DNA of 64,000 nucleotides from a bacterium (GCA_031401035.1 JANNRA010000112.1:2628-66627), one strand, 5' to 3'; positions 35,826 to 42,997 are shown, numbered from the stretch's first letter. Notes: generated by a model from the letters alone, not told the origin. Numbers and translations: made by a program.

Positions 35826-36566
35826 GTGGCTGCCACTGCACGGGAACGACTCGCCGCCCTGGACCTGCCGGGGACGGTGCGCTTCGGCGCGCCGACCGCC
35901 GACGCGGTGCGCCGCCTGCCGGTGGGCATCGCGGCGCTCGACGCGCTGCTCGGCGGCGGCCTGCCGCGCGGCTACCTGAGCGAGCTGGTCGGCGGCCGCG
36001 CCAGCGGCCGCACGGCGGTGCTGTACGCGCTGCTGGCGGCGACGACGCGCGCCGGCGAGGTGGCGGCGGTGGTCGACCTGCCCGACGCGCTCGATCCCGC
36101 CAGCCTGGCGCGCGCCGGGGTGCAGCTCGAGCGCGTGCTGTGGGTACGCCCGCCGGCGCCGCGCGCCGCCCTGCAATGCGCCGAGTTGATCCTCGCCGCC
36201 GGCGGCTTCGCGCTCGTCGCGCTCGACCTCGACGGGCCGCCGGCGCGCCTGTCGCGCGCCGCCTGGCCGCGCCTCGCCCAGGCGGCGCGGCGCGCCGGCG
36301 CGGTCTGTGTCGTCAGCGGCGCGCAGCGCCGCGCCGAGGGCGCCGCGGCGCTGGCGCTGCAGCTCGACGCGCGCCGCGTGCACTGGAGCGCGCACCTGCT
36401 CGACGGCCTCGCCGCCACCGCGACGCTGACGCGCAGCCGCTTCGGCGCGGCGGGGCAGGTGGCGACGATCGTCGTCGGCGAGGAACTATCGACGTTCAAC
36501 GCGCACCTCTCCGTCGCCCGCAAGCAGATGCAGCTCCCCTCTCCCGCCGGGAGAGGGTCAGGGTGA
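35826..36566 (+). CDS. imuA: SOS mutagenesis protein ImuA (inactive RecA-fold)
   Basis: GTG start. A RecA-like Walker-A region (LSELVGGRASGRTAV) is present. It is the first gene of the imuA-imuB-dnaE2 cassette. Its last codons and stop are encoded by a GGGAGAGGGTCAGGGTGAGGGG hairpin repeat. Confidence 0.75.
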   Translation: MAATARERLAALDLPGTVRFGAPTADAVRRLPVGIAALDALLGGGLPRGYLSELVGGRASGRTAVLYALLAATTRAGEVAAVVDLPDALDPASLARAGVQLERVLWVRPPAPRAALQCAELILAAGGFALVALDLDGPPARLSRAAWPRLAQAARRAGAVCVVSGAQRRAEGAAALALQLDARRVHWSAHLLDGLAATATLTRSRFGAAGQVATIVVGEELSTFNAHLSVARKQMQLPSPAGRGSG

Positions 36567-36635
36567 GGGGAGCAGACCTCCATGCCGCCGATCGTTTCCC
36601 GTGTCTCCGTGCCTCCGTGGTGAAAGGCATTTTCT

Positions 36636-38111
36636 GTGCGCCTCGCCTGTCTGTACGTGCCGGTGTTCCCGCTCGCCGCCTGGCTGCGCGCCGAGCCGGA
36701 GTTGCGCGGTACGCCGCTGGCCGTCGCCGACGGCGCCTCGCCGCGGGCGCGGCTGGTCGCCTGCTCGCCGGAGGCGGGGCGGCGCGGCGTCGCGCCGGGG
36801 CTGACGGCGGCGCAGGCGGCGGCGATCGCCGGCGACCTGGTGTTGCGGCCGGCCTCGCCCGACGCCGAGCGCGCCGCGCACGCGGCGCTGGCCGACGTGG
36901 CGTACTCGTTCTCACCGCGCGTCGAGGACGGCGCTCCGGGCACGGTGTACTTCGACGCCGACGGCCTGCACGAGCTCTACCCGAGCGAGCCGGCGCTGGC
37001 GCAGGCGGCGCTGCGCCGCGCCGCCGCGCTCGGGCTCGATGCCGCGATCGGCATCGCCGGCAGCAAGATCGCCGCCGAGCTGGCGGCGCGCGATGGCGGC
37101 GGCTGCGCGGTGGTGCCGCCGCACGAGGAGTGGCGGCTGCTGGCACCGCTGTCGCTCGATCGGCTGCAGCCCGCTCCGGCGCTGCGCGAGACGCTGAGCC
37201 GCTGGGGTATCCGCACGCTCGGCGATCTCGCCGCGCTGCCGGCGAGCGGGTTGGCGGCGCGGCTCGGTCCGGAGGCGGCGGCGCTGGCGCGACGGGCGCG
37301 CGGCGAGGACGCGCACCCGTTGGCGCCGCGGCCGCTGCCGCTGCAGTTCGAGGAGGCGGCGGCGCTCGACTGGGGTGTCGACGCGCTGGAGCCGTTCCTG
37401 TTCGTTGTGCGCGGCCTGCTCGACCGCCTGACGGCGCGTCTCGAGGTGCGCGGCCTGGTGTGCGGCGACCTGCGCCTGTCGCTCGGCCTGGTCGACCGCG
37501 GCCGCGACGAGCGCACGGTGACGGTGGCGGCGCCGAGCACGGCGGTGAAGGCGCTGCTGACGCTGGTGCGCGTCCATCTCGAGACCCACCCGCCGCGCGC
37601 CGCCGTCGAGCACCTGCGCCTCGCCGCCGTACCCGAGCGTCTGCGCGCCGCGCAACTCGACCTTTTCCGCCCCGCCGGCCCGGCGCCGGCGCAGCTCGCC
37701 GCGACGCTGGCGCGCCTCGGCGCCCTGTGCGGCGCGGTGCCGGTCGGCATGCCGGTGGTGGCCGACTCGCACCGCCCCGACGCCTACGGCGTGGCACCGT
37801 TCGCGGCGCCGCCGGCGGCGGCGGCAGGAGCGGAGTCGCGGCCCGTGCCGCTCGCCATCCGCGCCGTGCGTCCGCCGCGTCGACTGGAGGTCTTCTGCCA
37901 GCGCGATCGTCCCGACTTCCTGCGCGCCGCCGGCTGCCAGGGCCGCGTCGTCTCTCTCGCCGGCCCCTGGCGCCTCGCCGGCGAGTGGTGGCGCCCCGAG
38001 GCGGTGCTGCAGCGCGACTACTACGACGCCCAGCTCAGCGACGGCGGCGTCTACCGGTTCTACTTCGACCGCGCCGCGCAGCAGTGGTTCCTCGATGGTG
38101 AGTACGACTGA
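36636..38111 (+). CDS. imuB: Y-family-polymerase-like ImuB
   Basis: GTG start with MRLACLYVPVFPLAAW (the typical ImuB N-terminus). The protein is 491 aa and the gene precedes dnaE2. Confidence 0.8.
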   Translation: MRLACLYVPVFPLAAWLRAEPELRGTPLAVADGASPRARLVACSPEAGRRGVAPGLTAAQAAAIAGDLVLRPASPDAERAAHAALADVAYSFSPRVEDGAPGTVYFDADGLHELYPSEPALAQAALRRAAALGLDAAIGIAGSKIAAELAARDGGGCAVVPPHEEWRLLAPLSLDRLQPAPALRETLSRWGIRTLGDLAALPASGLAARLGPEAAALARRARGEDAHPLAPRPLPLQFEEAAALDWGVDALEPFLFVVRGLLDRLTARLEVRGLVCGDLRLSLGLVDRGRDERTVTVAAPSTAVKALLTLVRVHLETHPPRAAVEHLRLAAVPERLRAAQLDLFRPAGPAPAQLAATLARLGALCGAVPVGMPVVADSHRPDAYGVAPFAAPPAAAAGAESRPVPLAIRAVRPPRRLEVFCQRDRPDFLRAAGCQGRVVSLAGPWRLAGEWWRPEAVLQRDYYDAQLSDGGVYRFYFDRAAQQWFLDGEYD

Positions 38112-38140
38112 CTTTCACACGGAGAAACGGAGGAACGGAG
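38112..38140. repeat. left inverted repeat flanking the GxxExxY gene
   Basis: CTTTCACACGGAGAAACGGAGGAACGGAG. Its reverse complement matches 38519-38548 with one mismatch and one indel. Confidence 0.75.
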
Positions 38141-41500: not shown

Positions 41501-41807
41501 CACCGCCAAGGGCTTCTGCTTCCTCACCCTCGAGGACGAGACCGGCATCGGCAACGCCGTCGTCACGCCAGATCTGTTCCAGCGCCACCGCGCCGTCATC
41601 CACACCGCCGCGCTGCTGCTCGTCGAGGGCCCGCTGCAGGTCGTCGAGGGCGTCATCCATCTGCGCGCCCGCCGCTTCACGCCGCTGGCGCTGCCCGAAC
41701 AGGTCGTCACCCAGGCCGGACACGGCTACCGCATGCGCGTCACGCCGCAGGAGGAACCGCCGCCGGGGCTGCCGCCGAGGCTGCCGAAGTCGCACGATTT
41801 CCGCTGA
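38532..41807 (+). CDS. dnaE2: error-prone DNA polymerase DnaE2 (ImuC)
   Basis: The 1091-aa protein has an N-terminal PHP domain ([10 protein letters not shown]), the Pol III alpha core and an OB fold. The start is TTG at 38532 or GTG at 38541, with no obvious Shine-Dalgarno. Confidence 0.9.
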
Positions 41808-41824
41808 CCACACACGGAGGGTTC

Positions 41825-42997
41825 ATGCCGACCTCGTACCCCGTAACGATCCCCGCCGCCGCCCCGGCCGTTTGCCCGCGCCGCCTGCTCGACCAGGTGC
41901 GCGACGCCGTGCGCGTGCGGCACTACAGCTACCGCACCGAACAGGCCTACGTCGGCTGGATCCGGCGCTTCGTGCTGTTCCACGACAAGCGGCATCCGGC
42001 CGAGATGGGCGCCGACGAGATCCGCCGCTTCCTCACCGCTCTCGCCGTGCAGCGGCACGTCAGCGCCTCGACGCAGAATCAGGCGCTGGCCGGGCTGCGA
42101 TTCCTCCACCGCGAGGTACTCGGGCGCGACCCGGGATGGATCGACGACGTGGTGCGTGCCAAGCGGCCGGAGCGCCTGCCGATCGTGCTGACGCGCGGCG
42201 AGATCGGGCGCCTGTTCGCACACCTCGATGGCGCGACGTGGATTCTCGCTGCGCTGCTCTACGGCGGTGGGCTACGCCTCATGGAGGGCCTGCGGCTGCG
42301 CGTCCACGACCTCGACTTCGAGCGCGGCGAGATTCTCATCCGACACGGCAAGGGCGGCAGGGACCGCGTCAGCGTGCTGCCGACGATTGCCGCGGCGCCG
42401 CTCACCGACCACCTCGACCATGTGCGGACGCGCCACGCCGCCGACCGTGCCGCCGGGTTGGGTATGGTCCGGCTACCGGACGCGCTGGCGCGTAAGTATC
42501 CCAACGCGGCCGGGGAGTGGGGCTGGCAGTGGGTGTTTCCGGCGGCCCGCATCTGCACCGACCCGCGCTTCGGCCCTCCGACCCGCTACCATCTGCACGA
42601 GTCCGCCGTGCAGAAGGCCGTGCATGGCGCCGCCCGTCGCGCCGGTCTCGCGAAGCCCGTCGGCCCGCACACCCTGCGCCACTGCTTCGCTACCCACCTG
42701 CTCGAGGACGGCTACGACATCCGCACCGTCCAGGAACTGCTCGGCCACCGGGACGTGAAGACCACGATGATCTACACCCACGTGCTGAATCGCGGCGGCC
42801 GCGCCGTCGCCAGCCCCGCCGACCGACTCTGCACTTCGCCCGTTATGCCGCCAGCCCCGGCGGCTATGCCCTCTCCGGTGCCACCTGCGATGGGCCTGCG
42901 TAAACCGTTGGACGGGAATGGAAACGGCCAGTATCCTCCGCCCATCTCGCATCCCGTTATCGCGTCGCCCCCACGCGTGGGTCGTCGGAATCGTTAG
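41825..42997 (+). CDS. intI: integron integrase IntI (tyrosine recombinase with the IntI-specific additional domain)
   Basis: ATG 5 nt after ACGGAGGG and 17 bp after the dnaE2 stop. N-terminal [38 protein letters not shown]. IntI-specific patch [24 protein letters not shown]. Catalytic residues R...[19 protein letters not shown]. There is a 55-aa Pro-rich C-terminal extension. Confidence 0.9.

Follow-up and report, generated by a model that had tools for sequence, protein, structure and literature searches.

An integron integrase gene directly behind the SOS mutagenesis genes imuA, imuB and dnaE2 in uncultured bacteria

The locus described here lies in a 64-kb stretch of chromosomal DNA (the window; ~72% G+C) from an uncultured bacterium, and brings together an SOS mutagenesis cassette and an integron. 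On the plus strand, a gene for a major facilitator superfamily (MFS) transporter, ending at 35592, and a 233-nt spacer are followed by imuA (35826–36566), imuB (36636–38111), a GxxExxY gene (38141–38554), dnaE2 (38532–41807) and the integron integrase gene intI (41825–42997). Gaps of 69 nt and 29 nt separate imuA from imuB and imuB from the GxxExxY gene, which overlaps the start of dnaE2; only 17 nt lie between dnaE2 and intI. A first-pass annotation of the window had proposed that imuA, imuB and dnaE2 are followed by an integron integrase gene on one strand, and family models and coordinates bear this out. Where we call such an intI fused, we mean that it is embedded in the operon; no fusion of the proteins is meant. 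The long 'IntI' proteins P0044, P0029, P0086 and P0099, considered as DnaE2–IntI fusions, were rejected as mis-called starts or duplications.

The imuA-like gene has a GTG start and encodes a RecA-fold accessory protein of 246 residues. It matches PF00154 (RecA) with 54 bits and the ImuA model NF033429 with 64 bits, under that model's cutoff of 150; its size and its position as first gene of the cassette fit known imuA-imuB-dnaE2 operons. ImuB (491 residues; PF00817 IMS domain, 74 bits) is a catalytically inactive homologue of the Y-family polymerases. Polymerase IV has an acidic DMD motif at its N terminus, in place of which ImuB has LYVPVFPLAA (this first motif alone was inspected). DnaE2 (ImuC), the error-prone C-family DNA polymerase, starts at TTG 38532 or GTG 38541 and ends with TGA at 41805–41807. 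It scores 1260 bits against NF004225 ('error-prone DNA polymerase', cutoff 939) and contains PHP, pol3_alpha, finger, HHH and OB domains. IntI (390 residues, core residues 21–335) scores 440 bits against TIGR02249 ('integron integrase', cutoff 265) over model positions 1–315 of 315. Moreover, it aligns end to end with VchIntIA (PDB: 2A3V; E 7e-82, residues 6–320), and the alignment covers both the integron-specific insert and the R/K/HxxR/H/Y catalytic motifs.

The 17-nt spacer between dnaE2 and intI (41808–41824; ccacacACGGAGGGttc) contains a Shine–Dalgarno sequence, ACGGAGGG, at 41814–41821, and the intI ATG follows at 41825, just as the first-pass annotation had stated. That annotation also named a terminator or promoter between the two genes as evidence that would speak against their co-transcription. 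Neither a promoter-like nor a terminator-like site was found at the junction by consensus scan, for which we used a sigma-70 consensus that may not fit a host of 72% G+C. Folding likewise gave no stable hairpin, the RNA structure at the junction being weaker than that of shuffled sequence (z +1.3). Part of the spacer (41811–41822, CACACGGAGGGT) resembles the inverted-repeat ends of the GxxExxY element (CACACGGAGAAA) and might be a solo repeat left behind by such an element, but the three window matches to the CACACGGAG motif are within chance (9/100 shuffles).

The dnaE2–intI arrangement is real and recurrent. Our sample comprised 160 IntI loci (given L numbers here) from species-representative genomes and metagenomes, together with targeted look-ups. 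The search of other genomes for intI close behind dnaE2 that the first-pass annotation had suggested returned five further contigs, so that the tight junction is present in six independent contigs with gaps of 14–44 nt. Besides the window, these are L171 (IntI 80% identical to that of the window, gap 14 nt), L161 (79%, 18 nt), L001 (78%, 28 nt), L164/165, a Binatia metagenome-assembled genome (MAG; 69%, 44 nt), and L002 (68%, 15 nt). A GGAG-type Shine–Dalgarno sequence is present in the spacers of L001, L002, L161, L164 and L171. The host of L164 is distant: its DnaE2, ImuB and ImuA are 68%, 61% and 49% identical to those of the window, and other genes lie upstream of its imuA. Those of the closest IntI homologues for which the source gives a name are labelled Candidatus Binatia, 'Deltaproteobacteria bacterium' or simply 'bacterium'.

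Other relatives, with IntI identities of 62–73%, have intI behind unrelated genes. In a tree of the integrases, L001 and L161 cluster with the window in 100/100 bootstraps. The dnaE2-linked integrases as a whole form one group in 0/100 bootstraps, and L164 falls among the unlinked ones. The dnaE2-linked intI genes are therefore not monophyletic, which, within the limits of the tree, suggests that the linkage was gained or lost more than once.

The promoter region of imuA contains a predicted LexA operator. This is a direct repeat, GGCGAAAA-TTA-GGCGAAAA, at 35797–35818, 10 nt ahead of the GTG with which imuA begins; the opposite strand reads TTTTCGCC-TAA-TTTTCGCC, that is, TTCGCC-N5-TTCGCC (also TTCGC-N6-TTCGC or TTCG-N7-TTCG). 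An identical core, GCGAAAATTAGGCGAA, is found upstream of imuA in the window, L002, L161 and L164. Across 166 loci, matches to the degenerate pattern GCGAARRTTRGGCGAA are confined to these four imuA promoters and to the position immediately before lexA in the Binatia contig L166. We inspected the promoters of three more lexA genes (L167, L168 and L169), whose products have DNA-binding domains 72–87% identical to that of the L166 protein. In L167 and L168 the repeat lies between −35-like and −10-like hexamers, one of the two promoters having three copies with 11-nt spacing, and in L169 it has one mismatch. The conservation of the motif at both imuA and lexA promoters makes it a likely LexA operator. 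It also resembles the Caulobacter SOS box, GTTCN7GTTC (PMC9578287). The LexA site that the first-pass annotation sought upstream of imuA thus has a conserved candidate, to which LexA would bind judging by position and analogy.

We then scanned the 300 nt upstream of each intI with a weight matrix trained on the lexA and imuA sites only. Matches of at least 18 bits occur in 12 of 158 intI-upstream regions; 790 control segments of equal size, drawn from the same loci, gave no such match. All 12 are on the intI coding strand, at distances from the projected start of 84–125 nt in ten cases and of 36 and 198 nt in the remaining two. None of the 12 intI genes is attached to dnaE2, and ten belong in or next to the IntI clade of the window. 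Relatives with a box upstream of intI include L083, L098 and L166. In the 64-kb window itself the imuA site is the only strong match: there is none in dnaE2 or within 300 nt upstream of intI, and the matrix scan found no operator site near intI in the other fused loci either. A LexA box overlapping the promoter of intI itself, in the sense of Guerin 2009 and Cambray 2011, is accordingly not what the window has. An intI in this group can carry its own operator or sit behind an operon that carries one, which is the distribution expected if damage-inducible intI expression is conserved and its wiring interchangeable.

A different repeat was seen in L021, a Chloroflexota MAG, where seven tandem 11-nt repeats (ACATTCGTTGT-like; 153–230) stand immediately upstream of intI. 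They include six overlapping TTCG-N7-TTCG matches and score poorly with the operator matrix.

Searching with LexA by tblastn, we uncovered a second clade in which SOS genes neighbour intI. Full-length lexA (TIGR00498, 216 bits) immediately precedes intI, in the same orientation, in L009 (1172–2935), L102 (6720–8621), L109 (9185–10948) and L122 (1353–3261). The order is lexA-imuA-imuB-intI in L014 (404–4414), and imuB is upstream of intI in L006 (1–1684) and L019 (359–10978). The integrases of these loci form a separate group in 99/100 bootstraps. Their gaps to intI are larger (140–450 nt, and 1.8 kb in L019), which makes co-transcription a less secure assumption here than in the window. The lexA promoters of this clade have a different palindrome, CTGAAA-N4-TTTCAG, between TTGAC and TATAC. 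As a separate observation, lexA in this clade is flanked by opposed TTGAAC/GTTCAA repeat arrays with a 9-nt period.

To put numbers on this adjacency, upstream sequence of 700 nt or more is available for 94 loci of the 160-locus sample, and in 10 loci the gene next to intI on its upstream side, read in the same direction, is lexA, imuB or of dnaE type; such genes are otherwise almost absent from ~1.4 Mb of flanks. Two of the ten, L124 and L004, are doubtful. The dnaE-type gene of L124 is frameshifted and ambiguous: its score as replicative DnaE slightly exceeds that as DnaE2. In L004 (9109–9432) and the near-identical L091, a truncated and degenerate lexA-like open reading frame (ORF) of a Nitrospinota MAG lies ~590 nt upstream of intI and retains the DNA-binding domain and cleavage-site region only. 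These two loci may represent a decayed lexA–intI arrangement.

Downstream of intI, the locus is a chromosomal integron with an atypical, Treponema-like layout. The attI region (42840–43018, plus strand) contains the hairpins GTTATGCCGCC..GGCGGCTATGCC and CCCACGCGTGGG and the core GGATAAATGTAG|TTAGCC. We place the crossover (G|TTAGCC) at 43012/43013 because homology between the window and L161 and L001 stops exactly after GTAGTTAG, at GGATAAATGTAG|TTAG, within a core that is common to L163 and L164; on this placement the attI site would adjoin intI. Five cassettes follow, all co-oriented with intI. The first (43013–43508) has an ORF for a membrane protein of no family (43023–43415) and attC1 at 43410–43508. 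The second (43509–44175) encodes DUF6883 (43515–43856) and DUF4926 (43853–44077), with attC2 at 44098–44175. The third (44176–44569) has a small membrane-protein ORF, again of no family, ending at 44472, and attC3 at 44506–44569. The fourth (44570–45164) carries a HicA/HicB toxin–antitoxin pair (44594–44863 and 44853–45071) and attC4 at 45075–45164. The fifth (45165–47036), which ends the array, encodes an amidohydrolase (45201–46949) and has attC5 at 46977–47036. Toxin–antitoxin pairs and unknown proteins are typical integron contents, and G+C falls to 61–63% over 43–47 kb, compared with ~72% in the flanks.

The five attC sites were located by eye and by folding, an inverted-repeat finder having missed them. 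Each has RYYYAAC...GTTRRRY-type ends with R and L boxes, and its bottom strand folds into a canonical hairpin (z −2.8 to −7.9 over the five sites) with bulged bases on the 3′ arm. Sites resembling attC also lie 3′ of intI in relatives, as detected with a simple pattern scanner that is insensitive and strand-blind. In the classical layout intI diverges from the cassettes and a cassette promoter (Pc) lies in or near intI. The window departs from this: attI is 3′ of intI, and a consensus scan of the locus found no Pc-like promoter. Since intI is directed towards attI and the array, we assign the Treponema-like rather than the classical divergent layout. The window and L161 share their upstream synteny (MFS transporter, then imuA) and have different first cassettes directly after attI, which indicates that the integrase has been active and that cassettes have turned over since the two diverged.

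Three minor features of the integron are worth recording. The proline-rich tail of IntI, ~55 residues long and overlapping attI, is coded across attI in the window (42833–42997) and in the equivalents in L001, L161 and L162–L166. Relatives preserve the attI hairpins (GTTATGCCGCC-N6-GGCGGCTATGCC and another close to the core) despite changed sequence, for example as GTTAACCCGCC..GGCGGGTTAAC in L166; these hairpins could be IntI-binding sites, structural elements of attI or a terminator. Finally, after the last attC, 47021–47359 encodes a 112-residue fragment with the C-terminal domain only of a glutathione S-transferase, which ends at a convergent flavin monooxygenase-like gene (47347–49302, minus strand). 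The fragment may be the remnant of a chromosomal gene at the distal array boundary, or a cassette without attC.

The first-pass annotation overlooked the GxxExxY element between imuB and dnaE2. It is an inserted PD-(D/E)XK element of ~440 bp (38112–38554, plus strand), whose gene scores 144 bits against TIGR04256 (cutoff 35). It is flanked by inverted repeats of ~29 nt at 38112–38140 and 38519–38548 (CACACGGAG...CTCCGTGTG), which fold into a long stem (z −3.9) resembling a 23S rRNA intervening sequence. The element occupies the same site between imuB and dnaE2 in L002 (5907–6263) and L161 (5862–6266), and is absent from L164. A second kind of insertion affects dnaE2 itself in L161 (~9020–9440) and L002 (~9020–9460). 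Here a gene of the 23S_rRNA_IVP (four-helix-bundle) family (9033–9407 in L161) lies in the +1 frame of a ~420-nt insertion in the DnaE2 linker near residue 910. The dnaE2 frame is open throughout the insertion, giving two overlapping reading frames; the window dnaE2 lacks it.

How is intI expressed at this locus? We propose that intI is the last cistron of an imuA-imuB-(GxxExxY)-dnaE2 operon, without a promoter region of its own and under SOS control through the imuA promoter, and we put the probability of this reading at about 65%. The conserved tight junction, the lack of a terminator-like site and the presence of the operator at imuA but not at the fused intI together make SOS-controlled co-transcription the best reading. 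The first-pass annotation had argued for co-transcription from the short junction, and the comparison of junctions and of operator distribution favours its view in part. Both co-transcription and damage induction of intI are predictions made from sequence.

In unstressed cells, LexA would sit on TTCGCC-N5-TTCGCC, overlapping the imuA promoter, and the whole operon would be off. Upon DNA damage, activated RecA would promote self-cleavage of LexA, and one polycistronic mRNA would be made from imuA, imuB, the GxxExxY gene, dnaE2 and intI. IntI would then be translated from its own ACGGAGG Shine–Dalgarno sequence, 17 nt past the dnaE2 stop, and would excise cassettes and re-insert them at attI (G|TTAGCC, 43012/13) while the ImuA–ImuB–DnaE2 mutasome is active. 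Read-through from intI into the cassettes, across the ~190 nt attI region with its two conserved hairpins, is speculative.

Several points weigh against SOS-controlled co-transcription of intI. A promoter inside the 3′ coding region of dnaE2 may express intI. Within the GxxExxY element, a weak promoter-like site (38145–38172; 9/12 matches, within chance expectation) might drive dnaE2 and intI without LexA, and the stem of that element might be cut by RNase III, so that the mRNA is processed between imuB and dnaE2. The case for the repeat as a LexA operator consists of its promoter position and the analogy to the Caulobacter box. The close relatives L082, L084, L086, L087, L162 and L170 have an intI with neither a box nor an SOS gene, from which it follows that SOS coupling is not obligatory. 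The IntI tree is a neighbour-joining tree with weak internal support, and all the genomes compared are uncultured MAGs.

We considered three other explanations for the arrangement. The first supposes a neutral neighbourhood, in which an ancestral integron landed behind dnaE2 and was inherited vertically, with intI expressed from a hidden promoter in the 3′ part of dnaE2 and no regulatory meaning to its position. The shared flanking synteny of the window and L161 fits such vertical descent, and the arrangement is limited to part of one IntI clade, close relatives such as L162, L163, L166 and L170 having other neighbours. Set against it are a junction of 14–44 nt with a Shine–Dalgarno sequence that is kept across hosts whose ImuA proteins are only 49% identical, and fused intI genes that lack the predicted operator which unfused relatives have upstream of intI. 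Moreover, the dnaE2-linked intI genes do not form a single lineage, and the second clade has lexA or imuAB adjacency. We therefore regard neutrality as unlikely.

The second explanation is a target-site preference: integron platforms or their carriers would insert beside SOS and translesion-polymerase genes, and the recurrence would reflect insertion bias instead of selection for co-expression. There is precedent in Pseudomonas, where integron-like elements are documented to insert preferentially at rulB, which encodes a Y-family polymerase (PMC4542609), and the adjacency does recur with different SOS genes (lexA, imuB and dnaE2). This variety of partners cuts the other way too, since no single target sequence is evident among them. 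The polymerase genes here are intact and not interrupted, and operator presence or absence tracks the wiring, which insertion bias alone would not predict. We rate an insertion bias as distinctly improbable. An assembly or binning artefact joining an integron contig to a dnaE2 contig would be conceivable given that all sequences are metagenome-assembled, and is ruled out by the presence of the junction in six independent assemblies (NCBI, ENA and JGI) with diverged sequences.

A wider proposition goes beyond SOS-controlled co-transcription in the window: integron integrases may have been repeatedly selected into the SOS mutagenesis module outside the beta/gamma-Proteobacteria, as imuA-imuB-dnaE2-intI in Binatia and as lexA-intI or lexA-imuA-imuB-intI in the second clade. 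We consider this possible, though on present counts doubtful. If true, it would mean a single stress-inducible 'evolvability operon' joining point mutagenesis and cassette shuffling. The two might also interact in function, for example if the ImuB/DnaE2 mutasome supplied the DNA synthesis that resolves the single-strand attC recombination intermediate.

How does the locus compare with known systems? Guerin et al. 2009 reportedly described integron integrases under SOS (LexA) control, and Erill et al. 2006 and Galhardo et al. 2005 are said to have described imuA-imuB-dnaE2 as an SOS cassette. In Vibrio and in class 1 integrons, the integrase is known to be controlled by LexA through a beta/gamma-type box in the intI promoter, and Cambray et al. 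2011 discuss why other types of LexA motif were absent at intI (PMC3108266). The window would share with these integrons a tie between integrase expression and DNA-damage response, under which cassettes are shuffled at times of stress. By contrast, their LexA box lies over the promoter of intI itself, with intI and attI divergent (PMC3108266), whereas in the window a direct repeat of alpha/Caulobacter-like type is predicted 6 kb upstream, at imuA, and intI is a downstream cistron.

The imuA-imuB-dnaE2 genes form an SOS mutagenesis cassette, in some cases headed by lexA, that is co-transcribed in Caulobacter (PMC9578287). The window has these genes, the first of them imuA-like, in the same order and orientation, with a predicted LexA-type operator at the first gene; it differs from described imuABC cassettes in the extra integron integrase cistron and the inserted GxxExxY gene. 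In the atypical integrons of Treponema, intI is transcribed towards attI and the cassettes; as in the window, intI, attI and cassettes are on one strand with attI downstream of intI (PMC3607928). Embedding in an SOS operon, or a link to LexA, is not described for them in the literature examined. The rulAB locus of Pseudomonas offers a further parallel, as a tyrosine-recombinase element likewise lies beside a damage-inducible translesion polymerase locus. There, the elements insert into and disrupt rulB and use XerC/D-like integrases rather than IntI (PMC4542609), whereas in the window the polymerase genes are intact and intI lies behind them. The first-pass annotation knew of no description of the present arrangement as a module, and neither did our literature search return any account of imuABC or lexA operons with an integron integrase among their cistrons, within a coverage that is thin for subscription journals and leaves most of their papers outside. 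The literature examined on the polymerase families makes no mention of integrases.

The idea that integrons are under SOS control is central to accounts of rapid bacterial adaptation. To our knowledge, such control has been documented only for proteobacterial integrons with a beta/gamma LexA box in the intI promoter. SOS-linked integrons are therefore not new in themselves; what is new here is an SOS-linked integron with a new wiring and a different predicted operator. The locus and its relatives suggest that the SOS response and integrons have been linked for much longer and more generally, by different wiring, through another LexA motif or through embedding of intI in lexA or imuABC operons. 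Two diversity-generating systems would then stand under one switch. For Binatia and related bacteria, a candidate LexA operator emerges from the comparison as well.

Some further features of the window lie outside these arguments. A search with Rfam found no known RNA in the region of the locus; near the window end there are a signal recognition particle (SRP) RNA gene and two tRNA-Ser genes. An element resembling repetitive extragenic palindromes (REP-like; GAGAGGGNCAGGGTGAGGG, after a CCCTCTCCC...GGGAGAGGG hairpin) is present in 4 copies in the window, compared with 0.01 expected. Copies lie at 15002–15045, at 35655–35673 in the spacer upstream of imuA, and at 36551–36569, at the imuA stop and between imuA and imuB, where the 3′ end of imuA runs into the REP-like hairpin.

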